Assembly (NCBI GenBank): GCA_029213305.1
Contig: JARGPA010000009.1
Coordinates: forward strand, 38,004 to 102,003
Direction: 5' to 3'
Source: Phycisphaerales bacterium
GTDB taxonomy: Bacteria > Planctomycetota > Phycisphaerae > Phycisphaerales > UBA1924
Length of the DNA: 64,000 bases
The position numbers were made by a program, and so were the translations under genes. The notes under the pieces are model-generated. The model was not told where the DNA came from, did not search any database, and worked only from the letters and a program-made list of their open reading frames with translations. Positions 8,997 through 58,566 of this stretch are shown piece by piece; position 1 is the first letter of the stretch, and each line of letters starts with the position of its first letter.

Positions 8997-9055
8997 AGCT
9001 CTACTCCTTAGGAACCGTTCATGACCTTTCATGAATCGAAGTTCACTCATCGTCC

Positions 9056-12201: not shown

Positions 12202-12224
12202 GGTGTCTCCAATCTGAGTTTGAT

Positions 12225-13760
12225 TTACTTGCAGTACGCCATCAAGCCGTGGCGTCCACCCTCGCGTCCAAACCCGGATTCCTTGTATCCACCGAATGGG
12301 CTCGAAGGATCAAACTTGTTGTATGAGTTGAGCCAGACAATACCTGCGTCGAGTTTCTTCGCGACATCAAAGATCTTTGAACCCTTATCAGTCCAGACAC
12401 CTGCGGCTAAGCCGTACGGCGTGTTGTTTGCTCGACTGATTGCTTCTGAAGGAGTGCGAAAGCTCATCACTGCAAGGACTGGGCCGAAGATTTCTTCACG
12501 AGCAATCGTGTGACTCGGCTGAACCCCGGTATAGAAACAAGGCTTGCACCAATATCCCTTCTCAGGGAGTTCCGATTGACACACATCGTGCTGAATAGCG
12601 CCTTCGTCGTTACCAACACCGATGTATTTCCGGATTGTTTCGAGTTGCTCTTTGGAGTTGATCGCGCCGATATCTGTGTTTTTGTCCATCGGGTCGCCGA
12701 CGCGGAGGGTTGACATTCGATCATGGAGTTTCTCAACTACACGATCAATGATTGATTCCTGAACAAACAATCTTGATCCTGCGCAACAGACATGTCCTTG
12801 GTTAAAGTAGATCCCCTCGATGATTCCTTCGATTGCTTGATCGAGTGAAGCATCTTCGAAGATGATGTTGGCGCTCTTGCCGCCAAGTTCGAGAGTGACT
12901 TTTTTATTCGTTGGCGCGATACTGCGAGCGATTGCCTTCCCAACTCCAGTAGATCCAGTAAACGCGATCTTGTCGACATCACGATGTTCGACGATCGCCT
13001 TCCCTGTTTCCCCAGCGCCTGTGATGATGTTCACAACACCTTTGGGTAATCCAACTTCTTGACAGATCTGTGCAAATCTGAGTGCAGTGAGTGATGTTGT
13101 TTCTGCAGGTTTGAGGACAACTGTGTTCCCACATGCAAGCGCAGGAGCAATCTTCCACGCCATCATGAGCAATGGGAAGTTCCAAGGAATGATCTGGCCG
13201 CACACCCCGATCGGTTGTGGGGTTCGTCCTGGGAGTAGGTAATTGAGTTTGTCGGCCCATCCTGCGTGGTAGAAGAAATGCGCAGCCGCGAGAGGAATAT
13301 CTGCGTCTCGTGATTCTTTGATCGGTTTTCCGCCGTCGAGGGTTTCGAGCACCGCGAGTTCTCTGGCGCGTTCTTGCATTCTTCGAGCAATGCGAAAGAG
13401 GTATTTTCCTCGGTCTTTCCCACTCAGACCTGCCCATCCTGGGAGAGCGTCACGAGCTGATTGAACTGCTCTATCGACATCCATCACGGATGCTTCTGCG
13501 ATCATCGAAAGGGTGTCTTCAGTCGCAGGGTTGATGGAAGCGAACCGATTCCCGTTTTCGGGTTCGACGAACTCACCTCCGATAAATAATCCGTATGCGT
13601 CAGCAATTTCTGGGCGCACGGATTCAGGAGCAGGGGCATATTCAAATATCCCGCCTCCAACAGCGGCTCTGAGATCAAGCCGCGAAGCTGCGTTGCTATT
13701 TTGAACGTTACTCTCGGACCCATTAGTGGACTGATTCTTCGATTTACTCACGGTACTCAT
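12225..13760 (-). CDS. NAD(P)+-dependent aldehyde dehydrogenase (full length)
   Basis: 511 aa. Motifs are [19 protein letters not shown], the catalytic Glu context [12 protein letters not shown] and the catalytic Cys context [17 protein letters not shown]. Confidence 0.9.
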
Positions 13761-36297: not shown

Positions 36298-36639
36298 ATG
36301 AAACTTGAACGCGAACTCATGCGTGGCGCCGGCCCAACAGCGGTGTTGAAACTACTCTCGACCCGAGAAATGTACGGCTACGAACTTGTTGAAGCGCTTT
36401 CTCAAAAAACAGATGGTGTACTCGCAATGGGACAATCGACCCTGTATCCAATGCTCTACAACCTAGAAGCAAAGGATCTAATCGAAGCAGATTGGAGATC
36501 CGCGGATAACGGGAGAGATCGGAAGTACTACTCGCTCACTGGGAAGGGTAAGAAAAAACTCAAATCCGACATGGAGTCTTGGGAAAAACTGAGCAAGGCA
36601 ATGGTTTCGTTGGGTGTTCTCAAAGGAGCACTCGCATGA
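36298..36639 (+). CDS. PadR-family transcriptional regulator
   Basis: 113 aa. The winged-helix region is MYGYELVEAL...GQSTLYPMLYNLEAKDLIEADW...RKYYSLTGKGKKKL. Confidence 0.88.
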   Translation: MKLERELMRGAGPTAVLKLLSTREMYGYELVEALSQKTDGVLAMGQSTLYPMLYNLEAKDLIEADWRSADNGRDRKYYSLTGKGKKKLKSDMESWEKLSKAMVSLGVLKGALA

Positions 36640-38645
36640 ACGATTCATCAAAGTTAAATCCATGGCAATGGGCAATCACCCATTCTCCAATTCTACACAC
36701 ACTCAGATGGATGCGATACAAGTGTCTAAAAATTGGGAGTCCGAACCAACAAGCAAAGAGCATTGTGCTTCGTGCAGAGTTACCCATTGATATTGAAAAC
36801 CTGATTGTTACGACAACGACTAAATCCAAGCTTTGGAGTGTTGAACGGGTTGAGATCGCAAGAGAACTCATCGCACACGCTCAAGATGCGATCGAAGCAG
36901 GGCGTACAAGCGAAGAAATTTCAGAACAGTTTGGGGATCCAAAGCGAGTTGCAAAGCTCATGCGTCGTTCGATGAAGCGCAAACGTCCTTTGTATTGGAG
37001 AACATATCGCAATACAAAGCGCGTCATTCTGGGTTCACTTGCAATCATGCTCCTGTTTTACGGTTCACTCGCATTCCGTTTCTACACAGGGAAACCAAAG
37101 GTTCGGAGTAACTATATTGCAGATTTAAACGCACTCAATGAGGGATACTCTGAAGATCAAAAATCTTGGAAGGTGCTCATGGATGTTGGACTTCAATGGG
37201 GGCAGCAGTTGTGGGTATTCGAGAATGCACTCCGAGAGCAAGGGGATGATTCAGGTTTGCTTAGGTCTGAATCTATTAGTCAGTTCTTTCAACGAATTGA
37301 TGAGTCACACCCTGAGTATGATGGGTTTGTGCAGCTTATAAACGGATTCGAAATTGAACTTACTCGACTAAGAGAAGCTGCAACGAGAGAGGTGATTGGG
37401 TTGCCTGTTGGATTTGAATCTACGGAAGTAGAGTGGGAAGGACGAAGTTGGACAACAGGGATCATTCCTGCGACCAATGAAGACTACAAATCCAACTCAA
37501 TGATAGGTGTCTTGCTCCCTCATCTGGGTAATGTACGAAGACTTGGGCAACTCCTGGTTTTTGATTCTCATATTGCTCTTATTGAAGATGATGTAGATCG
37601 ATATGTTCAAGATTTACTCGCCGCGATGGGGCTCGTCCGACAAGTGAAACAAGAGCCTTACTTAATTTCTAAGCTCGTTGGTATCGCGATTCACAAACTG
37701 ATTATCAATGAACTCCACTCAACTCTAAAGAACAATCCAGGATTACTCAACAATGATCAAATCGTCAAACTTGCTCATCTCAATGCAGAAGTGGGGGCGC
37801 AAGAAGGATTCGGAATGGGTACAGAGCGAATTTCATTTTATGATCTTGTCCAAAGGATGTACACAGATGATGGAAATGGAAACGGGCATCTGACCTCTGA
37901 AGGGATTAATTGGTTGAGTCAATATTCAGAGCCAGATCGAGTTGGTCGAAACTCATCGGTAATTGAAATATTGATGAATGAAGAGTCAGTCATTCAGCTT
38001 ATTCGTCCAATCTCGATCGTTCGATCCATGGATCGAAAAAGCGAGTTGCGCTTATACAACAATCATCTCAATTCAGTTGAGCGAGTCGTTGATGATGGTC
38101 CGGAATATTTCGGGTCAATCATAGATCTAGAAGCATCGAGCTCATTTTATAGTTATGATTCAGATCCAACCTTCTTCTCATTAGCTAAAGTCATGATGCC
38201 CGCACTGGGGAATAGCCTCAACAGGTATTACACGCACAAACAAGAGTGCATCGGGCTCGGGACAATGTTGGCAATTGAGTCGTTCCGATTAAAAGAATCT
38301 CGACTCCCTGAGCGACTTGATGATCTTGTTCCAGGGTATCTCCCAAGACTCCCAACGGATTACATGGATCCAGGACAGTCCTTGAAATACAACATCTCAA
38401 CAGATGGGTATGTTCTCTACAGCATCGGGAGTGACGGCGATGATGATGGTGGGAAACTGGATGAAGATTCAATGTCAGGAAACAAGATCACGAGTATCGA
38501 TGTATTCTCGCTTCGGTTTCAATCAACTATTGATCCTAAATCAGGACTCGCACAGTTTGGAAACCAAGGCCAACCAATCCTCGCAGAACCGGTTGGTCCA
38601 GATGGCGATTGGATACTCTTTGATTCTCGACACATGTCAGAGTAA
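36636..38645 (+). CDS. PadR-coupled single-pass membrane protein with a large extracytoplasmic domain
   Basis: ORF 36579..38645, with ATG 36636 overlapping the PadR stop (ATGA). The cytoplasmic helical region with EEISEQFGDPKRVAKLMRRS resembles the PadR-associated 'permease prefix'/HAAS-type domain. It has one TM (VILGSLAIMLLFYGSLAF). The C-terminus YVLYSIGSDGDDDGG resembles the pseudopilin GspG tail. Confidence 0.6.
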   Translation: MNDSSKLNPWQWAITHSPILHTLRWMRYKCLKIGSPNQQAKSIVLRAELPIDIENLIVTTTTKSKLWSVERVEIARELIAHAQDAIEAGRTSEEISEQFGDPKRVAKLMRRSMKRKRPLYWRTYRNTKRVILGSLAIMLLFYGSLAFRFYTGKPKVRSNYIADLNALNEGYSEDQKSWKVLMDVGLQWGQQLWVFENALREQGDDSGLLRSESISQFFQRIDESHPEYDGFVQLINGFEIELTRLREAATREVIGLPVGFESTEVEWEGRSWTTGIIPATNEDYKSNSMIGVLLPHLGNVRRLGQLLVFDSHIALIEDDVDRYVQDLLAAMGLVRQVKQEPYLISKLVGIAIHKLIINELHSTLKNNPGLLNNDQIVKLAHLNAEVGAQEGFGMGTERISFYDLVQRMYTDDGNGNGHLTSEGINWLSQYSEPDRVGRNSSVIEILMNEESVIQLIRPISIVRSMDRKSELRLYNNHLNSVERVVDDGPEYFGSIIDLEASSSFYSYDSDPTFFSLAKVMMPALGNSLNRYYTHKQECIGLGTMLAIESFRLKESRLPERLDDLVPGYLPRLPTDYMDPGQSLKYNISTDGYVLYSIGSDGDDDGGKLDEDSMSGNKITSIDVFSLRFQSTIDPKSGLAQFGNQGQPILAEPVGPDGDWILFDSRHMSE

Positions 38646-38678: not shown

Positions 38679-39224
38679 ATGAATGATGCTACAGGGTTCG
38701 ATTTCCGTCAATACCATGCAGAGCACAAGATCGCAATGATCGTGGCGTGTTCCGAGAACAGAGTGATTGGTGCTCAAGGTGACCTCCCTTGGCATTTGCC
38801 TGGTGATCTCAAGCATTTCATGAGATCGACACGAGGGTGCAGCGTCATCATGGGACGAAAAACCTTCGAAACGCTCGATAAACCATTGCCCAATCGTCTT
38901 AATATCATTTTATCAAGGACTATGAGCGATGATCGTACTGATGGTGTTCGTGTCGCTCAGAGTTTGGATGTAGCAATAGAGATCGCAGAGTCTTCTGGGC
39001 TCGAGATGCCTATCTGGATCGCCGGCGGGGGACATATATATAGGATGGCGCTCGAACAGACGGATTTGGTGGTTCGGACACTCGTTCATGCTCAAGTGGA
39101 AGGGGATACTGAGTTCCCGTTGCTTGATAGTGATGTGTGGGAGATTGATAGATCGGTACATTGCGATGCAGATGAGAAGCATCCGCACTCATTCACAATT
39201 GAGTGGTGGACCCGTCAAAGTTGA
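38679..39224 (+). CDS. folA: Dihydrofolate reductase
   Basis: IAMIVACSENRVIGAQGDLPWHLPGDLKHFMRSTRGCSVIMGRKTFETL and WIAGGGHIYR. Confidence 0.9.
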   Translation: MNDATGFDFRQYHAEHKIAMIVACSENRVIGAQGDLPWHLPGDLKHFMRSTRGCSVIMGRKTFETLDKPLPNRLNIILSRTMSDDRTDGVRVAQSLDVAIEIAESSGLEMPIWIAGGGHIYRMALEQTDLVVRTLVHAQVEGDTEFPLLDSDVWEIDRSVHCDADEKHPHSFTIEWWTRQS

Positions 39225-39422
39225 AATTGTCAGGCCTGATAAAAAAAGTTATCCAGATTCATTTGCATTCTAAAAATCGTTGATTTCCGCATGTTGATGT
39301 CCAATTGGCTTTAGATGCGAAATTTCGCGGATTTGATTGCGTGAAAAACGGAGTTGGTTTTTGTCAGGGCCTTCGAATTGTTCAGGTTTCAAAAAAAAGC
39401 CCCTCAGATGAAGCAATTATGC

Positions 39423-39451
39423 TTGCAAGACGAATCCGGAATGGTTAACAT
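39423..39451 (+). promoter_or_regulatory. Candidate sigma70-type promoter for the first PEP-CTERM paralog
   Basis: TTGCAA-N17-TAACAT, about 90 nt upstream of ATG 39538. This is a pattern match only. Confidence 0.3.
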
Positions 39452-39537
39452 CGTCACGGGTCAGGAACGTTTTATCGTTCTTACGAAGGTATCTGGGTAC
39501 TTTTCCCAGAACCAAATATCACTGAGGAGAAAGAGAA

Positions 39538-40149
39538 ATGAAGACTACACTTGGACTTATCGCAGTTGCAGGTCTCGCTTCGGCAGCAGCAGCTGGTGGC
39601 GCAAGCCTTAGCATCGTTGCTTCAGCAGCTACAGTTGACACAACTGGCGCTTCAGCAACAGTAACTCTCGCTGTTTACGGCGACGCAGTTGGTACAGCAA
39701 TCGCTGGTGGCGAGTTCGCACTCACCGCTTCAGGCGGAGCTGGCCTTGTTTCAGACATGACCGGTGCTGCTGCAGCATGGGGTGCACTCGGCGGCCAAGA
39801 TAACGGCCACGCTGGTGACGGCAACTACAACGGATTGATCTTCGGTCAGTTGATCTTCCCTCCATTCATCAACCCAGCTGCAGAGTCAATGCTCGGCAAC
39901 GGTCCTGTCCTCTTGGGCAACATCACCGTTACCATCGCTGCTGACACTTCAGGTGTGATCGACTGGTCAACCGCTGCTGGTGCTGGCGACTTCATCCTTG
40001 AAGTATTCACTGATGACGGAGCTGCTGGTGTATTCGAGCAACTCACAGACGTTGCTCACGGATCAGCTTCACTCAACGTAGTACCTGCACCATCCGCTAT
40101 GGCTCTTCTCGGCCTCGGTGGACTCGTTGCTGGTCGTCGTCGCCGCTAA
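39538..40149 (+). CDS. PEP-CTERM-tailed secreted protein, paralog 1 (uncharacterised Ala/Gly/Thr-rich domain)
   Basis: RBS GAGGAGA. It has a signal peptide MKTTLGLIAVAGLASAAAAG, the core block GQLIFPPFINPAAESMLGNGPVLLG, and the tail VVPAPSAMALLGLGGLVAGRRRR. Codon choice is strongly C-ending. Confidence 0.85.
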   Translation: MKTTLGLIAVAGLASAAAAGGASLSIVASAATVDTTGASATVTLAVYGDAVGTAIAGGEFALTASGGAGLVSDMTGAAAAWGALGGQDNGHAGDGNYNGLIFGQLIFPPFINPAAESMLGNGPVLLGNITVTIAADTSGVIDWSTAAGAGDFILEVFTDDGAAGVFEQLTDVAHGSASLNVVPAPSAMALLGLGGLVAGRRRR

Positions 40150-40211
40150 TCGCTGCGTGACAACCGATTCAGTCGATAATCTTCGGATTTGACACTGTAC
40201 TGAATCAATAT

Positions 40212-40250
40212 CCCCCGATCGGGTTTTCCCGATCGGGGGTTCTTTTTTTT
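40212..40250 (+). terminator. Rho-independent terminator of paralog 1
   Basis: CCCCCGATCGGG-TTTT-CCCGATCGGGGG forms a 12-bp stem, followed by TTCTTTTTTTT. Confidence 0.85.
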
Positions 40251-40523
40251 GATATATGGGAATTACAGATTCGGTATGGAAATAAAGATTATCGGCGATA
40301 ATTGGGATGAATACGTCAAATCAGCTTGAAAACAGCGATTCGTGATGTGTGGATTCTAAAAAACGCCCACAATTCGGCAAAAATGAGATCTGAATTTGGT
40401 AATCGACTGGCACCAACCCCGAAGTTGGATTACTTTTCGGTCAGGTCACGAACGAGTTGTTCGTTCCAACAGGTCAACGGTTAAAAAATAGAATCCATAA
40501 ACAAATTTGAGGAGAACTTCCAA

Positions 40524-41132
40524 ATGAAGAACGCAATCGCACTTATCGCAGTAGCTGGTATCGCAACAGTCGCATCAGCAGGTGGCGCAAACCTAAGCAT
40601 CGTCGCTTCGGCTTCAACCATCGACTCAACAGTTTCAACTTCATTCACACTCGCAGTATACGGCGACGCAACCGGAACAGCTATGGCTGGTGGTGAGTTC
40701 GCTCTTACAGCTTCAGGTGGTGCAGGCATCGTTACTGACATGGTCGGTGCAGCAGCAGCATGGGGTGCTCTTGGACAAGAAGATCTCGGCCACGGCGGAG
40801 ACGGCAACTACAACGGCCTCATCTTCGGTCAGTTGATCTTCCCTCCATTCATTAACCCTGCTGCAGACTCAATGCTCGGCAACGGTCCAGTTCTCTTGGG
40901 TAACATCACTGTTACTATCGCTGCTGATTCAGCTGGCGTAATCGACTGGTCAACCGCAGCTGGTGCTGGTGACTTCATCCTTGAAGTATTCACCGACGAC
41001 GGAGCTGCAGGTGTATTCGAGCAGCTCACAGCTGTAGGTCACGGATCAGCACGTGTAAACGTTGTTCCTGCTCCATCAGCAATGGCAATGCTCGGCCTCG
41101 GTGGTCTCGTTGCAGGTCGTCGTCGCCGCTAA
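40524..41132 (+). CDS. PEP-CTERM-tailed secreted protein, paralog 2
   Basis: RBS GAGGAGA. It is collinear with and highly similar to paralog 1, with the core GQLIFPPFINPAADSMLGNGPVLLG and the tail VVPAPSAMAMLGLGGLVAGRRRR. Confidence 0.85.
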   Translation: MKNAIALIAVAGIATVASAGGANLSIVASASTIDSTVSTSFTLAVYGDATGTAMAGGEFALTASGGAGIVTDMVGAAAAWGALGQEDLGHGGDGNYNGLIFGQLIFPPFINPAADSMLGNGPVLLGNITVTIAADSAGVIDWSTAAGAGDFILEVFTDDGAAGVFEQLTAVGHGSARVNVVPAPSAMAMLGLGGLVAGRRRR

Positions 41133-41185
41133 TCGCTGCGAAACGCCGACACAGTTGATATTCAACTGAATACGCAATCTTAAGT

Positions 41186-41220
41186 CCCCCGATCAGTTCG
41201 CTGATCGGGGGTTCTTTAAT
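41186..41220 (+). terminator. Rho-independent terminator of paralog 2
   Basis: CCCCCGATCAG-TTCG-CTGATCGGGGG forms an 11-bp stem, followed by TTCTTTAATTT. Confidence 0.75.
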
Positions 41221-41364
41221 TTGCGATACAACCTTTATAACTACAAGATTCCATCTTGTGTCACATTAGATATTAGAATAACTTATGTATAAGAGATTAT
41301 GTGATCTCATTTGGATTCGGTACGACCACGATTTTTAGTTCCGTAGATATGTGAGGAGAAAGAG

Positions 41365-41985
41365 ATGAAAATTGCATTAGGAATGATTGCACTCGCAGGT
41401 CTTGCAAATATCGCAAGCGCACAGTCCGCATCGTTGAGCATTGTGAGTCCAGTTGCAACAATCGATACATCTGGAGGCTCAGTAAGCATTTCTCTGGAGA
41501 TCTTTGCGGATGTTGACTTTGGAACAGCAATCGCAGGAGGCGAGTTCGCACTTGATGGCACTGCTCCTGTCAATTCAGTCGCAAGTATGATTGGAGCTTC
41601 AGCAGCATGGGGAGAACTCGGATTCCAGGATAACGGGTATGCTGGAGACGCTGATTACAATGGGATGATCTTTGGACAGTTGATCTTCCCTCCATTCATT
41701 AATCCAGCTGTAGAGTCAATGCTCGGTAACGGCCCAGTCTTGCTTGGAACGGTAACAGTCGTAATCAATTCTCACACTTTTGGTGTCTGGGACTGGAATA
41801 CCGCTGCAGGATCAGGTGATTTCATGCTTGAGATTTATACTGATGACGGTGGCGCTGGAGTCTTTACCCAGTTGACTGCTGATGATATATCAATGGGTAG
41901 TGCTTCATTGAGTGTTGTTCCTAACCCATCTTCACTCGTGATTATTGGCGTTGGAGGTCTGATCGGTACTCGCCGTCGCCGCTAA
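41365..41985 (+). CDS. PEP-CTERM-tailed secreted protein, paralog 3
   Basis: RBS GAGGAGA. It has the signal peptide MKIALGMIALAGLANIASA, the core GQLIFPPFINPAVESMLGNGPVLLG, and the tail VVPNPSSLVIIGVGGLIGTRRRR. Confidence 0.85.
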   Translation: MKIALGMIALAGLANIASAQSASLSIVSPVATIDTSGGSVSISLEIFADVDFGTAIAGGEFALDGTAPVNSVASMIGASAAWGELGFQDNGYAGDADYNGMIFGQLIFPPFINPAVESMLGNGPVLLGTVTVVINSHTFGVWDWNTAAGSGDFMLEIYTDDGGAGVFTQLTADDISMGSASLSVVPNPSSLVIIGVGGLIGTRRRR

Positions 41986-42036
41986 TCGCTGCGAAACGCC
42001 GACACAGTTGATATCCAACTGAATACGCAATCTTAA

Positions 42037-42070
42037 GCCCCTCGATCAGTTCGCTGTTCGGGGGGCTTTA
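42037..42070 (+). terminator. Degenerate copy of the paralog-2 terminator, downstream of paralog 3
   Basis: GCCCCTCGATCAG-TTCG-CTGTTCGGGGGGC has two stem mismatches relative to a perfect hairpin, and its T tract is weak. Confidence 0.45.
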
Positions 42071-42216
42071 ATTTGCGATACAGCCTTTAAAACAACAAGA
42101 TTTCATCTTGTGTCACATTAGATATTAGAATAACTTATATATAAGAGATTATGTGATCTCATTTGGATTCGGCACGACCACGATTTTTAGTGCCGTAGAA
42201 ATGTGAGGAGAAAGAG

Positions 42217-42837
42217 ATGAAAATTGCATTAGGAATGATTGCACTCGCAGGTCTTGCAAATATCGCAAGCGCACAGTCCGCATCGTTGAGCATTGTGAGT
42301 CCAGTTGCAACAATCGATACATCTGGAGGCTCAGTAAGCATTTCTCTGGAGATCTTTGCGGATGTTGACTTTGGAACAGCAATCGCAGGAGGCGAGTTCG
42401 CACTTGATGGCACTGCTCCTGTCAATTCAGTCGCAAGTATGATTGGAGCTTCAGCAGCATGGGGAGAACTCGGATTCCAGGATAACGGGTATGCTGGAGA
42501 CGCTGATTACAATGGGATGATCTTTGGACAGTTGATCTTCCCTCCATTCATTAATCCAGCTGTAGAGTCAATGCTCGGTAACGGCCCAGTCTTGCTTGGA
42601 ACGGTAACAGTCGTAATCAATTCTCACACTTTTGGTGTCTGGGACTGGAATACCGCTGCAGGATCAGGTGATTTCATGCTTGAGATTTATACTGATGACG
42701 GTGGCGCTGGAGTCTTTACCCAGTTGACTGCTGATGATATATCAATGGGTAGTGTTTCAGTATTTATGATACCTGCGCCTTCATCTATCGCACTTATTGG
42801 ACTCGGTGGATTGATTGGTACTCGTCGTCGTCGCTGA
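42217..42837 (+). CDS. PEP-CTERM-tailed secreted protein, paralog 4 (identical to paralog 3 except for the tail)
   Basis: The first 179 residues are identical to paralog 3. The tail is VSVFMIPAPSSIALIGLGGLIGTRRRR. Confidence 0.85.
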   Translation: MKIALGMIALAGLANIASAQSASLSIVSPVATIDTSGGSVSISLEIFADVDFGTAIAGGEFALDGTAPVNSVASMIGASAAWGELGFQDNGYAGDADYNGMIFGQLIFPPFINPAVESMLGNGPVLLGTVTVVINSHTFGVWDWNTAAGSGDFMLEIYTDDGGAGVFTQLTADDISMGSVSVFMIPAPSSIALIGLGGLIGTRRRR

Positions 42838-42870
42838 GAACATTCGTCCGTAAACTGAGTTAAAAAATAG

Positions 42871-42904
42871 ATACCCCATAGCAGTCTGCTGTGGGGTATT
42901 TTGT
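42871..42904 (+). terminator. Rho-independent terminator of paralog 4
   Basis: ATACCCCATAGCAG-TC-TGCTGTGGGGTAT forms a stem with one G-U pair, followed by TTTTG. Confidence 0.7.
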
Positions 42905-42997
42905 GTAACCCACTAAAGAGTGGGTCTCGTAAAGACATGAATGTGGTACTCTTGTTGTGAGTACTGATCATCCATCGAAAAGAGTCGAAGGGAAGTA

Positions 42998-43606
42998 TTG
43001 ATGAACCGGACAGTTTGCATCTTCGCATTTGCAGGTCTCGTAACCCAAGCGTCAGCGCAGAATTATATTCTTCGAATCGAAGGCGGCCCGCAACAAGTAA
43101 ATACCAGCTCAGGATCTGTCTCAATCACCCTCGATGTGATCGGAGATGCAGAAGAAGGTCTTGGGACTCACATGCTTTGGGGGAGCTTTGCTCTCGAATC
43201 AATCGGTTCAGCGGTTATCGAAGATATCAGTTGGACCCATGCAGATTGGTCAGAGTTTAATATCGATGGTGGATACGACGGCCTAGGCGCTTACAACCGT
43301 ATCGAGTTCGGGCAATGGGAGGGATCAGGGTTCATTCCACGATCTGGTTCCGAACTTGGACAGTTGATCGGACAGTTCCAAATCACACTCGCACAGAGTG
43401 ATATTGCATCTGGGATGCTCGATTTTAGATTGTTACAATCAAGCTCATATGCTTTGAGCACTATTGATATCGATACAGGCGCATCGTATTACTCTACTCC
43501 TGAAGACTTAGTTCTGGAAGGGTTTTCGACGGTTGTAGTTCCTGCACCTTCAAGTGCGATGATCGTTCTGAGCGCTAGTCTTCTCTCGATTCGTCGAAGA
43601 CGATAG
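42998..43606 (+). CDS. PEP-CTERM-tailed secreted protein, divergent paralog 5
   Basis: It has the same length and outline as the other paralogs: signal peptide MMNRTVCIFAFAGLVTQASA, SGSVSITLDVIGDA, FGQWEGSGFIP, and the tail VVVPAPSSAMIVLSASLLSIRRRR. Sequence identity to paralogs 1-4 is low. Confidence 0.75.
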   Translation: MMNRTVCIFAFAGLVTQASAQNYILRIEGGPQQVNTSSGSVSITLDVIGDAEEGLGTHMLWGSFALESIGSAVIEDISWTHADWSEFNIDGGYDGLGAYNRIEFGQWEGSGFIPRSGSELGQLIGQFQITLAQSDIASGMLDFRLLQSSSYALSTIDIDTGASYYSTPEDLVLEGFSTVVVPAPSSAMIVLSASLLSIRRRR

Positions 43607-43608
43607 TC

Positions 43609-44148
43609 TCAGGGTGATTCCTCTGAATCGTCTGATTTTTCGGCTTCGAGGATCATGAAAGACAGAACGACAGCGCCATCTGCATATAGATCGAGTTGTG
43701 TTCGTTCTGGATGATATGCATCAACTTGTTGGAGAAGCTGGATGTATCGAGCTTCCTGTTGCATGACCCCTTGGGGTTCGGCGCAGTACATCCGGGTTGT
43801 TAAGATATCACTGAACTTGAGTCCTGCATCAGCTTTGCGGATGTAGTTCCCAGTGTATCGATTGCATCCTGCATTGCCATCGAGCCAGGTGTGTTCTTTA
43901 AGTTGGAGTTGGATGTTTGTTCCCGCGATTGGTGCGTGGCCTTCGATGAGGAACAGGTGCCATTCTTGTCCAGTGATCCATGCCCAATCTTGTTCTGCTT
44001 GTTGGATCGCGTTGACCATTGGGCGCGTATCGGTTCTTGGTTCAAGTTCTTTGTTCTTGTCTGCGCATCCTTGGATATTGAGCAATGTAAAACTAATGCA
44101 ACTGAAGATAAGAGTCTTCAAAAGAAAGCTTCTTAGTGATGTTGACAT
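43609..44148 (-). CDS. META-domain (HslJ-like) lipoprotein
   Basis: It has the lipobox-like LNIQGC, then WHLFLIEG...NAGCNRYTGNY...LKFSDILTTRMYCAEPQGVMQQEARYIQLLQQVDAY, the META-domain pattern. Confidence 0.75.
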   Translation of the reverse strand: MSTSLRSFLLKTLIFSCISFTLLNIQGCADKNKELEPRTDTRPMVNAIQQAEQDWAWITGQEWHLFLIEGHAPIAGTNIQLQLKEHTWLDGNAGCNRYTGNYIRKADAGLKFSDILTTRMYCAEPQGVMQQEARYIQLLQQVDAYHPERTQLDLYADGAVVLSFMILEAEKSDDSEESP

Positions 44149-44235: not shown

Positions 44236-44742
44236 CTAACTGCTGAGCGATTGGTCAGGGATTCCTCCTAATGCGCCCATTGATACATCGTAGAGTTCAT
44301 GCATCTGAGCTTGAGCGAATTTTTGACCAATCAATGATGCCCAGTATATCAGAACTGCAAGGATAATGAAGAGCGGAATGAGCTTGGCAGCTGCAGGAGG
44401 TTTATTCATCATCCATTGAGCAACTCCAAACATTGCAGCAAAGAAACTTAATGTTGCAAGAGATATATATGTGAACATGAAACCTGTCCAAACACTGGGG
44501 TTGGGGCTGAATCGGCCTTTAATTGCTGATCCTGTCTCGAGTTGATGGACTTCGATGTTGAGCCAAGGAGACCAGAAATGTCTCGATTCTGGGGGGATCA
44601 CAAGCATGAGATGGTTACCAGCGATTCGTCCTGAGATTGGAAAGTCTGCATCATCTAGCAATGTGCTGAGTTTATGAATTGCTTCTTGGTCTTCCAGGGG
44701 AAACTCAATTCGAAAAGTTGGTCTCATCGGGGGAATCTGCAT
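44236..44742 (-). CDS. Hypothetical membrane protein
   Basis: 168-aa ORF with a soluble N-terminal half and two C-terminal TM helices. No motif was recognised. Confidence 0.5.
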   Translation of the reverse strand: MQIPPMRPTFRIEFPLEDQEAIHKLSTLLDDADFPISGRIAGNHLMLVIPPESRHFWSPWLNIEVHQLETGSAIKGRFSPNPSVWTGFMFTYISLATLSFFAAMFGVAQWMMNKPPAAAKLIPLFIILAVLIYWASLIGQKFAQAQMHELYDVSMGALGGIPDQSLSS

Positions 44743-44895: not shown

Positions 44896-45444
44896 ATGAA
44901 AACAGACAACGCGGTATCAAAGCTCGCTCAACTGATTTACGATGTCCCGGATTTTCCCAAGCCCGGAGTTGTCTATAAGGATTTCACTCCGATGCTCGCG
45001 GATCCTTCGGCGCTTGCTCTTGCGGTTGAGTTGATGGCGAATCCATATCGTGGAAAGGGTATCGATCTGGTTGTCGGGGCCGAGAGTAGAGGGTTTATCT
45101 TTGGGATTGCGATCGCTCAAGCACTCTCAGCGGGGTTTGTACCGGTTCGGAAGCCTGGAAAACTACCTCGCGAAGTGCACGGCGTTGAATATGATCTAGA
45201 GTACGGATCCGATCGACTTGAGCTTCATGAAGATGCGTTGTGCAAGGGTAATCGAGTCTTGCTTGTCGATGATCTCCTTGCAACTGGGGGGACGATGAGA
45301 GCAAGTTGCCAACTCGTAGAACGGACAGGTGCAGAGATCTACGGGATCACAGTACTGATAGAGCTTGATTTCCTCAATGGACGGAAACTTCTCGATGGGT
45401 ATGGAGACCTTCACTCTGTACTTCGGTATGAGGCTAACGACTAA
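44896..45444 (+). CDS. apt: Adenine phosphoribosyltransferase
   Basis: DFPKPGVVYKDFTPML, GAESRGFIFG and the PRPP-binding loop VLLVDDLLATGGT. Confidence 0.9.
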   Translation: MKTDNAVSKLAQLIYDVPDFPKPGVVYKDFTPMLADPSALALAVELMANPYRGKGIDLVVGAESRGFIFGIAIAQALSAGFVPVRKPGKLPREVHGVEYDLEYGSDRLELHEDALCKGNRVLLVDDLLATGGTMRASCQLVERTGAEIYGITVLIELDFLNGRKLLDGYGDLHSVLRYEAND

Positions 45445-49165: not shown

Positions 49166-49231
49166 AAGATGCTCCTCGATTCTTGTCGATATCGTAGTCG
49201 ACGATCGAGTGATGGTCAGGAGGATTCGTTT

Positions 49232-50731
49232 ATGCCGATGCTGAGTCTCAAAGAAGCATATGATAATGCGAAGAGCCTCTATGACAAGGGTTATTATCGG
49301 GCCGCCGTCAATGCGGCGAAGGTCCTCTACAAACAAAAACCTCACCATCCGCCCGTAGTTGCTTTATATGTTGGATCGCTCCTGCGTGTTCAGAGGTTCA
49401 AAGAAGGAATTTTGATTGCGAAACGATCATTAAGACACATTACTTTCAAAGAACATCGGATCGCGATCATCAATCAGCTCAGTGAAGGACTCACCCAAGC
49501 AGGGCAACTCGATGACGCAATCGAGATGATCAGATTAGAGTTTGAAAAGCAACCCAATCATCCATCACTTATCGCAGCGTACACCCATCTTCTCGTGATG
49601 AACAATCAACGAGATGTTGCGGTAGAGTTCATTGACTCCTTGCGAGAGCAAGGAATCGAGGGGTTGGTGATCGCTGCTGTCTTCGGCCGAGCAGTCTTAA
49701 GAACGGATCGAAGAGATGAAGCAATCGAATGGATCACCAGACTCCTAGAAGAAAACGAAGACGCAGACCCAAACCAGAAACAACAAGCGCTCAACTCGCT
49801 GGGGCATCTTCTCGATCGCGCAAAGCGATACGATGAAGCAATGGTTGCATTCAAAGAGTCCAACAAACAAATCGATCCTGGTTTTATCAAGCGTCGACAC
49901 CAAGTTGTTGTTGATTCAATACATCAGAACTGGACACTAGAGCAGATGCAAAGTGTTCAGAGGCCTGATCCACAAGGGATCCGTCCAATATTTATTGTTG
50001 GGATGCCTCGCTCAGGAACGACTCTCACTGAGCAGATCATTGATGCACATCCAAAGGGGTTCGGTGCAGGCGAACTCGGTTTCATGTCCGAGTTGTTTAT
50101 TAGTATTGCTCACAACGAGTTGAACCCATACGAGACGCATCCAAGAGATTACACTACAGAGCAAATCGCAGAGGTTGCTCGAGCCTATCGAGAAGAGACG
50201 GCCGCGATGGTCGCGGATGAATCAGTGGAAGTTATAGTCGATAAAGCGCCAATGAACTTTCATTATTTGGGATTGATCGCACTTGCGTTCCCAGACGCAA
50301 AGATTATTCATTGTCAACGCGATCCACGCGACAACTGTCTTTCTTGTTTCTTCCAGTTGCTCAATCCTGGACATGGATATAGTTTCGATCTTGCCGCGTC
50401 TGGTATTTACTACAGACAGTATCGCCAGATTATGGAGCATTACACTCCACTGATTGCTCAAGAACCATTCAATATGACAATCTTCGAAAACGATTACGAG
50501 GGGATGGTTGCGGATCAGGAGAAACGGACTCGCGAGATTTTAGATTTCATTGGTTTAGAATTTGATCCTGCGTGTCTTGAGTTCCATTCCACAGGCCGAA
50601 TCGCAAACACACTCAGTAATGAGCAGGTTCGTCAACCGATCTACAAATCATCCACCAAGCGATACGAACGATATTCAAAGCATTTGGTCCCTTTAGTCGA
50701 TGCATTGGGTGATGTGCTCGATGATGAATGA
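49232..50731 (+). CDS. TPR-repeat sulfotransferase, paralog 1
   Basis: ORF 49169..50731, with ATG 49232 preceded by AGGAGG. It has an N-terminal TPR half, the 5'-PSB-type loop IFIVGMPRSGTTLTEQII, the 3'-PB-type HCQRDPRDNCLSCFFQ, and the C-terminal QVRQPIYKSSTKRYERY. Confidence 0.8.
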   Translation: MPMLSLKEAYDNAKSLYDKGYYRAAVNAAKVLYKQKPHHPPVVALYVGSLLRVQRFKEGILIAKRSLRHITFKEHRIAIINQLSEGLTQAGQLDDAIEMIRLEFEKQPNHPSLIAAYTHLLVMNNQRDVAVEFIDSLREQGIEGLVIAAVFGRAVLRTDRRDEAIEWITRLLEENEDADPNQKQQALNSLGHLLDRAKRYDEAMVAFKESNKQIDPGFIKRRHQVVVDSIHQNWTLEQMQSVQRPDPQGIRPIFIVGMPRSGTTLTEQIIDAHPKGFGAGELGFMSELFISIAHNELNPYETHPRDYTTEQIAEVARAYREETAAMVADESVEVIVDKAPMNFHYLGLIALAFPDAKIIHCQRDPRDNCLSCFFQLLNPGHGYSFDLAASGIYYRQYRQIMEHYTPLIAQEPFNMTIFENDYEGMVADQEKRTREILDFIGLEFDPACLEFHSTGRIANTLSNEQVRQPIYKSSTKRYERYSKHLVPLVDALGDVLDDE

Positions 50732-50805: not shown

Positions 50806-52332
50806 ATGCAACAACCAGCACAACAGAATCAACCTACGCCTCAACAAGTCTTTGAAGAAGCTTATCGACTTCTCCGTATCGGTGATGTGTACGAAGCTGC
50901 GAAACGAGCAGGTAAGTTGCGAATGCACTTCCCGCAGGATGTTCCAGTGCTCACACTCCACGGGATTGTTCTCGCGCAGATGGGTGTTCATCCTCAAGCG
51001 CTCAGTGATCTGATCTTGGCAGCGAAACTCACAGAAGAAGCACTCAAAAACGAAACGGACGAAAATCCGAATCGTCCGCGCATTGTGGATCAGTTGATTC
51101 GACTCAGTGTTCATATTTGTCGTTCTTCAGTTGCAATCAATGAGTTTGATGCTGCTACTGAAGCAATCGAGAACGCACTGGGTTGGGATCCAGATCGTGG
51201 AGATGCAGTTGCAGCGAAAGCAGAACTCTTCGCAAAGCAAGATCGTGAATCTGAAGCTTTAGAGCTCATCACGAATGCACAAAATGAGATGCTCGAATCA
51301 ATGCCGCTAGCTTTGAGCAAGGGGAAAATCCTTCTCGGTTCAGAGAATACGTCAGATGATGCGTTGAGAGCATCATTGAAAGAACTCAGCACAGAAGCCG
51401 AAGTTTCAGGTTTAGGAGCACTCGATCTGAGCGATCTTCTTCGTGTCATCGGGATGATCCATGATCGACTCGGAGAGTTCGATGAGTCATTTAACTCCTT
51501 CCGCAGAGCTGCGAAACTCCGTCGGGGATCGTATGACCCTCGATCACATACGATGATGACGACAAAGATTTGTGCAGAATGGAACGAAAACAGTCTCACC
51601 AAGTTGATCAAACCCCAAGCGTCGGGTGAACGCTTTGTTCTCTTGCTCGGCGCACCTCAATCTGGAGTTGATGAACTCTCAGAGATGCTCTGCCAGTTCG
51701 ATGGCGCCAAGGTTGTCGGCCCACTCGAAACTCTTTCGATGATCGGTGTCAAACATCTTGGAGCTCGTCAAGGCGTGCTTCGACCAGTACCGTTCGAGCC
51801 ATCGAAGTTCCGTGGCGCTCAAATTAAAGAAGCTGGTGATGCATACAACGACCAAGTTTCGCCGTTACTTGACGACTCGGTTCTTCGAGCTGTTGATACA
51901 CATCCGCACAATATTCCCCTCGCAGGCGCTGCGGCAACAATCCTTCCAGGAATCAACATTGTCATCTGTCGAAGAGACCCGATGGAGTCAATCTTGTCTA
52001 CTTATTGTGATTCGATGATTGGGAACCATCCATACGCAGGGGATCTCGTAAACCTTTCAGGGTTTGTAACGGATTGCAATCGGATGCTCGATCATTGGGC
52101 ATCATTCCTTGGGAACGAATCAATCGGTGCAAATATCGTGGAAGTCGATTATAAAGATCTTGCGAAAGATCCGAAGAAGATTGCCGCAAAGGTTGCCCGT
52201 GAGATCGGACTCGATGCAAGAGCAACTTCAGTGAATCGTGTTCCTGATTTTGATACAGGACCAAGCACACATCCTGAGAAATATGCTTCGTATACAAAAT
52301 CGGTTGAAGAGTTTGTTAACCCAGTGTCATAA
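50806..52332 (+). CDS. TPR-repeat sulfotransferase-like protein, paralog 2 (degenerate PAPS-binding loop)
   Basis: RBS GGGAG. The architecture is the same, but the loop reads FVLLLGAPQSGVDELSEML, the second motif reads CRRDPMESILSTY, and the conserved C-terminal QVRxPIYxSS block is absent. Confidence 0.65.
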   Translation: MQQPAQQNQPTPQQVFEEAYRLLRIGDVYEAAKRAGKLRMHFPQDVPVLTLHGIVLAQMGVHPQALSDLILAAKLTEEALKNETDENPNRPRIVDQLIRLSVHICRSSVAINEFDAATEAIENALGWDPDRGDAVAAKAELFAKQDRESEALELITNAQNEMLESMPLALSKGKILLGSENTSDDALRASLKELSTEAEVSGLGALDLSDLLRVIGMIHDRLGEFDESFNSFRRAAKLRRGSYDPRSHTMMTTKICAEWNENSLTKLIKPQASGERFVLLLGAPQSGVDELSEMLCQFDGAKVVGPLETLSMIGVKHLGARQGVLRPVPFEPSKFRGAQIKEAGDAYNDQVSPLLDDSVLRAVDTHPHNIPLAGAAATILPGINIVICRRDPMESILSTYCDSMIGNHPYAGDLVNLSGFVTDCNRMLDHWASFLGNESIGANIVEVDYKDLAKDPKKIAAKVAREIGLDARATSVNRVPDFDTGPSTHPEKYASYTKSVEEFVNPVS

Positions 52333-55601: not shown

Positions 55602-57032
55602 ATGGCGAAGAATCCACGAAAAGCAGCAGAACTATTCCTTAAAGGAACTGAAGCAATTAAAGCAGAGAGTTTTAGCGTCGCAAAAACGATGCTGACGAAA
55701 GCACACGAGCTCGATCGAGATAATCCTGATATCATGCTCCGGCTTGGACAAGTCCTCATTGCATCCGGATTTGCGAGAGAATCTGTTGAGATCATGAAGA
55801 AGTGCGTAAAACGCAAACCGAACTATCCAGACTCAATGATATTGCTCTCCCAAGGATTCATGGAGATAGGACAGATCGATGAAATGCATCGCATTCTCGA
55901 TAAAGCACTCGCATGGGATCCGACGCATGGCGTATGTATCCACGCAAAAGTCACAGGGTATATCAACTCAGGTGAGCTAGAACTCGCAGAGGAAGTCGTT
56001 AAAAAAACCTACGAGATTCAAAATCCGCATCCATTGATCTACATGTGTAGAGGAAAGCTCTATCGAGCTCAGAAAGACTATTCAAAGGGTGTCGAAGAGA
56101 TAAGTAAGATCTTTGAACATCCAGATGCACGAGATCGACACAAGCGATCTGCACGATTCGAGATGGGGCATCTCCATGACGCGATGGGAGAATATGACAC
56201 TGCGTTTGAACATTTCAAAATCGGGAACAGCGGTCACATCCAAGGACGATTGCTCCACGCTCCAACGATGATTTCGATGTGGTCGCCTGAAATGCTTTCA
56301 AATATTCCACAGTCAGAGAACGATTCTCATAGGCCGGTATTCGTTGTTGGTATGCCTCGATCAGGGACAACCCTGACAGAGCAAATTCTCGCTGCTCACC
56401 CAAAGGTTGCAGGGATCGGAGAGTGTTCTTTGACCGCACATATGTTGCGACGTCGGACTCCGACTTCTTTGACTTCGAATGACATTGAATCCTACGCAAA
56501 GGAGTATCTTGATTATCTTGATGAGCGAGTAGACGGGGATGTTGAACGAACAATCGATAAGCATATTGGTGCAGAACGAACATTGGGTTTAATTAGTAGA
56601 ATGTTCCCTAATGCAAAGGTTATCCATTGTTTACGTAGTCCAGTCGATTCTTGCTTGAGTTCATATTTTCAGAACTTCGGAGTCAATGTTCCATATTCAA
56701 GGGATTTGGTATCACTCGGGAAGCAGTATGTCGCTCATCGTCAAGTAATGGATCATTGGTACGAGGTGCTTGATCTAGAGATACTGCAAAGTCCGTATGA
56801 GCAACTTGTCGACGATTCAGAGAACCGATCAAGGTTATTGGTCGATCACATCGGGCTCGAGTTCGATGAGCAATGCTTGCGTTTCCATGATTCGAAGAAA
56901 TATATCGGGACAGCGAGCAGTGTGCAGGTTCGCAAGCCGATCTACAAGTCGAGCCGCGAACGATGGCGAAACTATGAAAAACACATCGGACCTTTGATTG
57001 ATCAGTTGGGTGAATATGCTGATATTGACTAG
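55602..57032 (+). CDS. TPR-repeat sulfotransferase, paralog 3
   Basis: It has a TPR N-terminal half, VFVVGMPRSGTTLTEQIL, HCLRSPVDSCLSSYFQ and QVRKPIYKSSRERWRNY. Confidence 0.8.
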   Translation: MAKNPRKAAELFLKGTEAIKAESFSVAKTMLTKAHELDRDNPDIMLRLGQVLIASGFARESVEIMKKCVKRKPNYPDSMILLSQGFMEIGQIDEMHRILDKALAWDPTHGVCIHAKVTGYINSGELELAEEVVKKTYEIQNPHPLIYMCRGKLYRAQKDYSKGVEEISKIFEHPDARDRHKRSARFEMGHLHDAMGEYDTAFEHFKIGNSGHIQGRLLHAPTMISMWSPEMLSNIPQSENDSHRPVFVVGMPRSGTTLTEQILAAHPKVAGIGECSLTAHMLRRRTPTSLTSNDIESYAKEYLDYLDERVDGDVERTIDKHIGAERTLGLISRMFPNAKVIHCLRSPVDSCLSSYFQNFGVNVPYSRDLVSLGKQYVAHRQVMDHWYEVLDLEILQSPYEQLVDDSENRSRLLVDHIGLEFDEQCLRFHDSKKYIGTASSVQVRKPIYKSSRERWRNYEKHIGPLIDQLGEYADID

Positions 57033-57108: not shown

Positions 57109-58566
57109 ATGACACAGTTTAACATTCCATCAGATTCAGGAAATCCATCTGTGATGACCGCCTATCAGAAGACGGTTAAGAACTGTCGTGATCTCATCGA
57201 AGCGGGGCAGTATGGACCCGCAGTGAATATGCTTTCAGGCGCGCTCAAGCAATCCCCGCGTGATTCGATTGTTTTGCGGATGCTCGGGCACTCGTTGATG
57301 ATGCTTGATGCACCCAAAGAAGCAATCCATTATCTCACCTTTGCGTCAAAGCTCGATCCAAAGAATCCAGATTTGTTATGCGATCTCGCGTCTGCACTCC
57401 GTCGAGTTGATGAACTCAGAAAAGCTCATCAGGCTGCCGACGACGCGCTCAAGATTGCAAAGAACTACCCAAGAGCGATCATGGTGAAAGCAAGACTCTT
57501 GCAATCGCATGGGCAATCCCAAAGAGCATATGAACTTGTAAAAGAATCTCTCAACGAACATTTCGACACAGGGTTGTTGGGCACCTACGGGCATCTCTGT
57601 AGAGAACTCAAGTTTCAATCTGAAGGGATCGACGCGATGCGCAAGGGGCTCGAAGTCCAAGGGCTCCCTCGACCCAACCGTCAGGATATTCTCTTTGTGC
57701 TTGGACATCTTCTCGACTCAATGGGCGAATACGATGAAGCATTTGATTGTTTCTCAAAAGGCAACGCGATGTCCAACGAAGGATCAGTTGTCGATGTTGA
57801 AAAATACCTTGAGCGTTGGAGTAAAGAACACTACGACTCAGTCCCTCAAGCAGACGTCGACGGGTCACGCGCGGTCTTCATCGTTGGGATGCCTCGTTCT
57901 GGTACAACGCTTACCGAGCAGATCATTGCTTCGCACCCGAGCGCGGGCGGTGTGGGTGAGAGCCAGTTGATCGATCGATTAACGAAACAGAATCCGCCGG
58001 AAGAATACGATCAAGCCTTTGTGAACGAGTGTGGAAAGAGTTATCTAGACATGCTTGTCGATCATTTTCCTCAACAAACAACGAAACGTGTTTGTGACAA
58101 GATGCCTGAGAATTATTATTTCCTAGGATTCATCAATCGCATTTTACCTGGATCCCACATCATCCATTGCAGAAGAAATCCGATTGATACTTGCTTATCG
58201 ATCTTCTTCCAACGCTTTGGCCCGCGTCTTGCATACGCTACAGATCTTGGGAACTGCGCCGATCAGTTCCTTGTGTATACACACATCATGAAGTACATCA
58301 CAGAAACCTTAGAGATCAAGGTTCATGATGCAGTGTACGAAGAAACAACCAAGAATCCTGAATCTTCCATTCGTGCGATGCTTGATCATATTGGGTTACC
58401 ATTTGATAACGCGAGTATGGAGTTCCATAAGAGCAAGAAATCAGTCCACACCGCAAGTGCAGCTCAGATCCGTCAACCGATGTACACAAGCTCGTCACAA
58501 CGCTGGAAAAACTATGAAAAATATCTAGGGCCGATCATCGAGAAACTGTCTCCTGTGCTCGATTAA
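57109..58566 (+). CDS. TPR-repeat sulfotransferase, paralog 4
   Basis: RBS GGAG. It has a TPR N-terminal half, VFIVGMPRSGTTLTEQII, HCRRNPIDTCLSIFFQ and QIRQPMYTSSSQRWKNY. Confidence 0.8.
   Translation: MTQFNIPSDSGNPSVMTAYQKTVKNCRDLIEAGQYGPAVNMLSGALKQSPRDSIVLRMLGHSLMMLDAPKEAIHYLTFASKLDPKNPDLLCDLASALRRVDELRKAHQAADDALKIAKNYPRAIMVKARLLQSHGQSQRAYELVKESLNEHFDTGLLGTYGHLCRELKFQSEGIDAMRKGLEVQGLPRPNRQDILFVLGHLLDSMGEYDEAFDCFSKGNAMSNEGSVVDVEKYLERWSKEHYDSVPQADVDGSRAVFIVGMPRSGTTLTEQIIASHPSAGGVGESQLIDRLTKQNPPEEYDQAFVNECGKSYLDMLVDHFPQQTTKRVCDKMPENYYFLGFINRILPGSHIIHCRRNPIDTCLSIFFQRFGPRLAYATDLGNCADQFLVYTHIMKYITETLEIKVHDAVYEETTKNPESSIRAMLDHIGLPFDNASMEFHKSKKSVHTASAAQIRQPMYTSSSQRWKNYEKYLGPIIEKLSPVLD

Follow-up and report, generated by a model that had tools for sequence, protein, structure and literature searches.

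The stretch of DNA analysed here (the window) is 64 kb from a marine Phycisphaerales metagenome-assembled genome (MAG; locus tags P1U42_*; contig of 122 kb). Five consecutive forward-strand genes in it form a tandem array encoding small paralogous proteins, each of which runs from a signal peptide through a mature domain of about 160 residues to a C-terminal tail composed of a proline motif, a hydrophobic helix and RRRR immediately before the stop. We favour, with modest confidence, the interpretation that these are lineage-specific structural proteins of the cell surface, delivered by the PEP-CTERM/exosortase route and consisting of a major coat or matrix protein accompanied by minor variants. 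The array product is probably the main surface-coat protein family of the cell. The array is an uncharacterised member of the known PEP-CTERM class, and three of its five genes are already so labelled in GenBank. What sets it apart is the predicted very high expression of two copies, the conserved genomic slot with its turnover of copies, a sorting motif devoid of glutamate, a composition poor in basic residues and a predicted cohesin-like fold.

In the route that we infer, Sec would export the precursor via the signal peptide at its N-terminus, and the C-terminal helix together with the RRRR stop-transfer signal would hold it in the inner membrane. An exosortase encoded elsewhere in the genome would then cut at [VI]-P-x-P-S, and the cleaved protein would end up on the surface of the cell or in its exopolysaccharide layer. 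What is set free would be a beta-sandwich of ~16 kDa that lacks Cys, has hardly any Lys or Arg and carries a net charge of about -15. As the putative major isoforms, copies 1 and 2 should rank with the cell's most abundant proteins and would build the coat or matrix, since each combines an extreme codon bias with a conserved promoter-like site of its own, a strong ribosome-binding site, a structured leader and a strong terminator. Variation would come from low-expression variants, namely copy 5, which diverged long ago, and copies 3 and 4, which were duplicated very recently. The array and its boundaries are:

38679..39224, forward strand: dihydrofolate reductase (DHFR) gene (PF00186, E 1.9e-48), upstream boundary of the array
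39538..40149, forward strand: copy 1, 203 aa; signal peptide, predicted 162-aa acidic beta-sandwich, VPAPS tail; putative major isoform
40524..41132, forward strand: copy 2, 202 aa; VPAPS tail; putative major isoform
41365..41985, forward strand: copy 3, 206 aa; VPNPS tail; putative minor isoform
42217..42837, forward strand: copy 4, 206 aa; IPAPS tail; putative minor isoform
43001..43606, forward strand: copy 5, 201 aa with ATG 43001 as probable start (the open reading frame opens with TTG at 42998); VPAPS tail; divergent terminal subfamily
44896..45444, forward strand: apt-like phosphoribosyltransferase gene (PF00156), downstream boundary of the array

Gene array and expression signals

An earlier interpretation made from the letters of the window (the sequence-only reading) had proposed five paralogous forward-strand genes with this common architecture, and a listing of open reading frames (ORFs) recovered all five at exactly the coordinates it gave. 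The protein sizes of 202-206 aa given there hold for copies 1-4, while the 202-aa ORF of copy 5 most likely starts one codon further in, which makes it 201 aa long. A family hidden Markov model (HMM) scores the five copies at E 1e-92 to 1e-53, so that their relationship is not due to chance. Aligned over the whole length, copies 2, 3, 4 and 5 are 84, 64, 64 and 36% identical to copy 1, and the alignment contains the block GQLIFPPFINPA[AV][ED]SMLGNGPVLLG that had been described as common to copies 1-4. Copy 5 retains the outline only, as had been noticed, with scattered invariant residues, yet it reaches 177 bits on the family HMM (about 282-302 bits for copies 1-4). The copy 1 protein is identical to MDF1809163.1; in GenBank, copy 3 is a 'hypothetical protein', and 'PEP-CTERM sorting domain-containing protein' is the name given to copies 1, 2 and 4. 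Both housekeeping flanks proposed for the array, folA and apt, were confirmed by matches to DHFR_1 and a phosphoribosyltransferase family, but apt is not directly adjacent: a META-domain gene convergent with copy 5 (43609-44148) and a small membrane-protein gene (44236-44742), both on the minus strand, lie in between.

The first two copies are set apart by their codon usage. The effective number of codons (Nc) is 34.9 in copy 1 and 34.2 in copy 2, about 44 in copies 3 and 4 and 55 in copy 5; in the 48 other genes of the window it spans 46.6-57.3. The C-ending fraction among two-fold pyrimidine-ending (NNY) codons amounts to 0.95 and 0.93 in copies 1 and 2, respectively, the background NNC fraction being 0.46 ± 0.09 with a maximum of 0.68. 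The codons GCG, GGG, ACG, CCG and CTG are absent from both these copies, and the codon usage of copy 5 equals the background. In the related genomes, where arrays or single members were found at the loci L001-L014, the comparison covers arrays whose start is on the contig. In L001, L002, L003, L005 and L008 the strongest bias is that of the first two copies (NNC 0.72-0.95), later copies being near background; in L006 these two are less biased (0.75 and 0.60).

Candidate transcription and translation signals surround the genes:

39422..39451, forward strand: sigma-70-like promoter candidate of copy 1; -35 (C)TTGCA at 39422-39427, 17-nt spacer, -10 TAACAT at 39446-39451
39458..39537, forward strand: presumed 5' leader preceding copy 1; putative +1 at the invariant GGGTCAGGAA, hairpins at 39463-39482 and 39493-39509, Shine-Dalgarno sequence GAGGAG at 39524-39529
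40212..40249, forward strand: intrinsic terminator after copy 1; 12-bp stem with 10 GC pairs, T-run; -27.2 kcal/mol
40408..40523, forward strand: promoter-like site and leader of copy 2; TGGCAC, 17 nt, TACTTT; GGTCAGGTCAC; hairpin at 40449-40463; Shine-Dalgarno sequence at 40509-40514
41186..41221, forward strand: terminator-like hairpin after copy 2; -22.7 kcal/mol
42037..42066, forward strand: hairpin after copy 3, a mismatched, degenerate copy of the copy-2 hairpin; -24.1 kcal/mol
42870..42900, forward strand: hairpin after copy 4, followed by ATTTTGTGT; -23.4 kcal/mol

Upstream of the first copies the conserved elements follow in the order CTTGCA, 17-nt spacer, TAnnAT-like hexamer, GGGTCAGGAA and TGAGGAGA. 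CTTGCA and the TTA of the -10 element are invariant in an alignment of nine orthologous upstream regions, as are GGGTCAGGAA, situated about 75-85 nt 5' of the ATG, and TGAGGAGA at the ribosome-binding site; transcription of copy 1 would start at GGGTCAGGAA, near 39458, and that of copy 2 near 40444. The conserved block is found upstream of codon-biased copies only, in the window and in L001, L002, L004, L005, L006, L008, L012 and L014, and the upstream block of copy 2 is also located 5' of the second copies in L001 and L006. The stem of the leader's first hairpin is GGAACG/CGTTC or GGAAT/ATTCC depending on the genome, with pairing kept and a loop varying from 3 to 6 nt. The second hairpin is present in each genome, with sequences unrelated between them. 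In single-sequence folds the folding z-score is -2.4 for the leader of copy 1 in the window and ranges from -1.5 to -2.7 when the leaders of L001, L004, L005, L006 and the first copy of L014 are included; folding is not significant for the first copies of L002 and L012, the second copy of L014 and the second-copy leaders. RNAalifold gave no consensus structure for an ungapped alignment of the leader hairpin because the loop lengths differ. The hairpin may act as an mRNA-stabilising 5' stem-loop.

A strong Shine-Dalgarno site had been assigned to every gene. This applies to copies 1-4 (GAGGAG, 6-9 nt upstream) but not to copy 5, which has a weaker GAAGGGAAG. The hairpins described after copies 1-4, including the degenerate one of copy 3, are all present with the folding energies given above. 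A terminator scan, which requires a loop of 3-8 nt, calls only those after copies 1 and 2 and does not call that of copy 4, and behind copy 5 a terminator would not fit, the stop of the convergent META-domain gene being 2 nt away from its own. Rfam matches of the terminator hairpins (ctRNA_pGA1, 30.5 bits versus a threshold of 45; NsiR1, 29.1 versus 39) were taken as chance stem-loop matches. Taken together, codon bias, promoter-like sites, leaders, ribosome-binding sites and hairpins lead us to expect separate transcription and very high expression of copies 1 and 2, in agreement with the separate transcription units proposed earlier.

The promoter signals also bear on an unlikely alternative, namely that the array encodes PepA-like matrix proteins which would bind the cell's own exopolysaccharide (EPS) and keep the cells aggregated or attached to particles, as in Zoogloea and Aquincola. 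PepA increases the bound exopolysaccharide and rescues flocculation (PMC9850573), and its architecture is the same: small, secreted, with a PEP-CTERM tail and multiple paralogs. The floc_PepA model NF033554 gives a sub-threshold match to copy 2 (16.7 bits, residues 15-202) and matches 15 of 86 family members at E <= 0.01 (best 3.5e-6), and four TPR-sulfotransferase paralogs in the window would fit the production of a sulfated polymer. However, 16.7 bits, the best score in the window, is far below the cut-off of 80 bits, and pepA transcription needs RpoN, whereas no sigma-54 site (TGGCAC-N5-TTGCW, up to two mismatches) was found in the intergenic regions of the array, and sigma-54-like matches in the whole window are at chance level (34 versus 29.4 expected). 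Neither EPS and PrsK/PrsR/PrsT genes nor an exosortase gene lie near the array in any examined genome. In addition, a polyanionic domain would repel acidic or sulfated polysaccharides unless bridged by cations, and many of the relatives stem from pelagic TARA and other marine assemblies. The TPR-sulfotransferase-like paralogs (forward strand, 49169-50731, 50806-52332, 55602-57032 and 57109-58566; ~480-520 aa) could sulfate a polysaccharide or protein; the combination of TPR and sulfotransferase domains (PF00685/PF13469) is seen in near-identical or orthologous copies on other contigs.

The C-terminal tail and the exosortase question

The tails of copies 1-5 read VPAPS, VPAPS, VPNPS, IPAPS and VPAPS, with PAP, PAP, PNP, PAP and PAP as their cores, and each is followed by a hydrophobic stretch of 13-14 residues and by RRRR before the stop, in line with the motifs and the outline first described. 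Residues 187-199 form a helix in the full-length AlphaFold model, and at the other end of the proteins all five copies begin with MK...A-x-A, a signal peptide by sequence reading. In 134 family tails the motif is [VI]-P-x-P-[SAG], x being Ala in 104, Ser in 14, Thr in 12, Asn in two and Gly or Val in one each, and 107 of these tails terminate in exactly RRRR. The two prolines, P183 and P185, are nearly invariant in 56 sequences. The PEP-CTERM check suggested earlier gave a divided outcome: TIGR02595 (PEP_CTERM) matches copies 1, 2 and 4 (17.5, 17.0 and 17.3 bits; cut-off 16) but not the other two; among 86 family members, 40 have a match to it at E <= 0.01. Because Haft et al. (2006, PMC1569441) found Pro-Glu-Pro to be nearly invariant in the PEP-CTERM signal, the tail of the array is, at the level of sequence, a variant of this signal lacking the Glu.

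Several observations speak against a surface coat delivered by an exosortase. The canonical Glu of P-E-P occurs in none of the 134 family tails. Copy 3, with its VPNPS, and copy 5 have no match to TIGR02595 and pass no sorting-signal model, and Pfam PF07589 yields 15.0-19.7 bits for copies 1-4, with a gathering score of 20.7, and no match for copy 5. An exosortase gene is absent from the 64-kb window, as had been stated before and as a scan of the whole window confirmed; the sole ORF with at least six predicted transmembrane segments (9295-10008) does not match any exosortase model. Nor was an exosortase found in the ~20-kb flanks of five relatives. As to the putative coat, its 16-kDa product is small compared with what an S-layer subunit would be expected to have. 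The high expression is a prediction from codon bias and signals, and the fold matches described below give no functional assignment.

The tail could in principle be a permanent, uncleaved inner-membrane anchor of a periplasmic protein, formed by the helix and RRRR, in which case the resemblance to PEP-CTERM would be superficial. The Glu missing from every tail, the sub-threshold PF07589 scores, the failure of copies 3 and 5 to fit a sorting-signal model and the window devoid of an exosortase would all be consistent with such an anchor, which we nevertheless regard as quite improbable. A plain anchor needs no P-x-P-[SAG] before the helix, yet the motif is nearly invariant; three copies pass the TIGR02595 cut-off, and the same motif ends an unrelated trypsin-like protease. 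Moreover, Planctomycetes are known to have PEP-CTERM proteins alongside an EpsH homolog (Rhodopirellula baltica RB2461; PMC1569441).

The protease in question, a trypsin-like serine protease (1842-2861, forward strand; PF00089, E 2.3e-22), has the C-terminus IPSPG...RRRRNA, again a PxP tail without Glu. This protein is likely a second client of the same sorting system, and it shows that the organism and its clade put this kind of tail on other secreted proteins as well. The occurrence of a surface trypsin-like protease beside a coat protein family free of Lys and Arg is suggestive.

Two other processing systems were considered and rejected. Myxosortase-type signals require an invariant Cys, and the Cys count is zero in all five proteins. 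The MYXO-CTERM models TIGR03901 and TIGR03382, with cut-offs of 20 and 15.85 bits, reach only 14.9 and 14.1 bits, respectively; the JGI label 'MYXO-CTERM' on relatives is unsupported. A CPBP/Rce1-like gene as a source of an alternative processing enzyme is not present in the window, L001 or L014, and the tails are without Cys. A gene for a CPBP/Rce1-like intramembrane protease is situated two genes past apt in L002 (16895-17677, minus strand) and L012 (14393-15271, minus strand), and this position near the array is probably coincidental.

Composition and predicted fold of the mature domain

The mature domains of the five copies are 15.6-17.2 kDa with a pI of ~4. In copies 1-4 they contain no Lys and 0-1 Arg in 161-165 residues, and in copy 5 four Arg; the family means per mature domain, from 92 members, are 0.16 Lys, 1.0 Arg and 16.5 Asp+Glu. 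This acidic character could allow binding of cations, and the outline of the proteins (signal peptide, small mature domain, PEP-CTERM tail) is the same as in ZepA, the zinc-handling PEP-CTERM protein of cyanobacteria, homologs of which have been reported in the PVC superphylum (PMC10957091). A diffusible scavenging exoprotein of this kind is, however, very improbable, as the mature domains hold only 1-2 His and no His-rich segment, match no metal-binding family in NCBIfam or Pfam, and are not encoded near metal-uptake or Fur/Zur genes in the window or the flanks of relatives.

In the sequence-only reading the mature domain was described as unrecognised. By sequence this stands: no Pfam or NCBIfam family covers the domain in the five copies and 86 diverse relatives, and a profile search of all PDB sequences with it gave no match. 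It no longer stands structurally, as the structure prediction and Foldseek search proposed at that stage yield a confident all-beta sandwich resembling cohesins. The AlphaFold model of the mature domain, based on a 97-sequence alignment, has a pLDDT of 97.8 and a pTM of 0.92, and the full-length model adds the C-terminal helix to the sandwich. With both models, cohesin modules rank first in the PDB (1g1k, 6kgf, 5nrm, 6kge and 2zf9; E 1.7e-4 to 1e-3, TM-score 0.50-0.62, probability 1.00, 14-17% identity), and unrelated viral beta-sandwich modules reach similar E-values of about 2e-4. The modelled domain has 11-12 strands versus nine in cohesins. The cohesin family PF00963 matches none of the five window copies and one of 86 family members (E 0.052), and hhalign against three CipA cohesins gives a probability of 0.2% with a thin template; a wider cohesin profile gathered only 11 close CipA relatives. 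Since PF00963 and hhalign give so little and the viral modules score equally, the likeness of the predicted structure to cohesins is at the level of the fold only.

This likeness opens for another function, to which we attach a small probability: the surface-anchored beta-sandwich would be a receptor for 'GC-type dockerin' tails of enzymes secreted by the same bacteria, in a 'planctosome'-type arrangement anchored by PEP-CTERM. Cohesin-dockerin 'planctosomes' with dockerin-bearing M14 peptidases have been proposed for the freshwater family Nemodlikiaceae (Andrei et al. 2019, PMC6461901). Besides the top rank of cohesins for both models, potential partners occur in the genomes concerned. An FG-GAP protein in the window (2870-4240, minus strand; PF14312, E 2.3e-85) carries at its C-terminus a tail of two EF-hand/dockerin-like repeats, with GCQ as its last residues, which scores 27.3 bits on NF041540 'GC-type dockerin', just below the cut-off of 29. 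In L012 (TARA_SAMEA4397295 scaffold_1) an M14 zinc carboxypeptidase (3527-5902, minus strand) scores 35.5 bits, above this cut-off, and is encoded 4 kb upstream of the homologous array. It would be conceivable, although doubtful, that a highly diverged cohesin displays enzymes (the M14 carboxypeptidase, the FG-GAP protein and others) in marine Phycisphaerales via an exosortase tether, with the array paralogs possibly offering different docking specificities.

Against this, a sequence signal for cohesin is absent from the PF00963, hhalign and PDB profile searches, TM-scores of about 0.5-0.6 denote similarity at fold level, which the viral modules match, and the strand numbers differ. The predicted abundance of copies 1 and 2 would be far above that of likely enzyme partners. 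The Nemodlikiaceae model places cohesin domains in large multidomain proteins rather than in a small family, and array and GC-type dockerin were seen together in only two genomes. A word-indexed search with the GC-dockerin tail retrieved two proteins, too few for a profile of co-occurrence, and a literature search found no link between 'PEP-CTERM' and 'cohesin'. The docking idea, built on sequence matches and models, may thus serve as a circumstantial lead only.

Distribution, turnover and relation to known systems

The search for homologous arrays in related genomes, also suggested at the outset, recovered arrays in relatives at the same slot. A profile search of 1.84 billion representatives gave 40 clusters (50% identity) at E < 1e-30 and about 96 at E < 1e-10, the weaker matches among those listed mostly covering the C-terminal part of the profile. 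Every family member with a named taxon is from a Phycisphaerales or Planctomycetota MAG. A narrower family alignment searched against the genome collection gave seven loci in five MAGs. Tandem arrays are present at almost every locus recovered, the exception being L004, a single copy after which the contig ends. The slot DHFR-array-apt is the same in five places looked up from family members, with DHFR directly upstream of the array in L001, L002, L012 and L014, and it is kept in genomes whose array proteins share only 44-56% identity. Just upstream of DHFR in the window lies a gene for a 688-aa protein with an N-terminal HAAS domain (36579-38645, forward strand), preceded in L001 by a PadR regulator gene; this pair is absent from the slot in more distant relatives and is probably not tied to the array.

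Copy numbers vary within the conserved slot, from two in L014 and four in L001 and L012 to five in the window and about seven in L002, one of the latter frameshifted. This L002 member (11785-12416) is split into overlapping ORFs of 129 and 131 aa with the look of a frameshifted pseudogene, which fits a birth-and-death turnover of the array. In a neighbour-joining tree the divergent last copies form old clades of their own, copy 5 grouping with the terminal copies of other arrays, and among the core copies positional orthology between close genomes is mixed with lineage-specific duplication or conversion. Over 41383-41882 copy 3 shows 100% identity with copy 4, the two differing only in the last ~30 codons, and it resembles copy 2 at 82-98% in its 3' end and terminator region, a pattern of recent unequal recombination as read from the alignments. 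The array appears to turn over by duplication, gene conversion and loss.

Elsewhere in the window, 6090-9095 (minus strand) encodes a FliD-like flagellar cap protein whose length of 1001 aa is unusual, FliD_N and FliD_C being set apart by ~600 residues without a family match.

Very few of the numerous PEP-CTERM proteins have a known role, and the planctomycete surface is poorly understood. The present family is a concrete candidate for the protein that dominates the cell surface in a widespread clade of marine Phycisphaerales. A coat nearly free of Lys and Arg would resist trypsin-like proteases, and the PxP motif without Glu implies an exosortase with altered specificity. Provided that its abundance is borne out, the family would serve well as a metaproteome marker and would be a likely target for recognition by phages or grazers, and such a target would, in turn, explain the turnover in copy number. 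Should the cohesin-dockerin link be true, it would extend this mechanism of display to exosortase-anchored proteins and to enzyme display in a diderm (outer-membrane-bearing) bacterium.

Among known systems, the PEP-CTERM/exosortase proteins (TIGR02595, PF07589; PMC1569441) are like the array in their signal peptide, their tripartite tail of proline motif, helix and basic residues, their lineage-specific expansion of paralogs and a mature region without a recognised domain. The array differs from this class in having P-[A/S/T/N]-P instead of P-E-P, in lacking a nearby exosortase, EPS locus or PrsK/PrsR, and in occupying a housekeeping slot conserved across the clade. PepA (NF033554) is likewise small and secreted with a PEP-CTERM tail, presumably as an abundant component of the extracellular matrix, and its model gives weak near-full-length matches to some family members; the array lacks the sigma-54 promoter and the prsT/EPS neighbourhood, and belongs to another phylum and habitat. 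Cohesins (PF00963), including those of the proposed 'planctosomes', share with the array domain the beta-sandwich, a similar size and the best fold matches in the PDB, and proteins with dockerin-like (GC-type) tails, including the M14 carboxypeptidase, are encoded in the same genomes as the array; the array protein has extra strands and is a single domain with a PEP-CTERM tail, in contrast to a multi-module scaffoldin. The S-layer glycoprotein of Haloferax volcanii is abundant and acidic, and its PGF-CTERM signal is removed by the archaeosortase ArtA of the exosortase/archaeosortase superfamily. Although it is far larger, archaeal, glycosylated and lipid-anchored, and depends on another signal and enzyme subfamily, it parallels the proposed product of the array in its great abundance and acidity at the cell surface and in losing a C-terminal sorting signal to a sortase.

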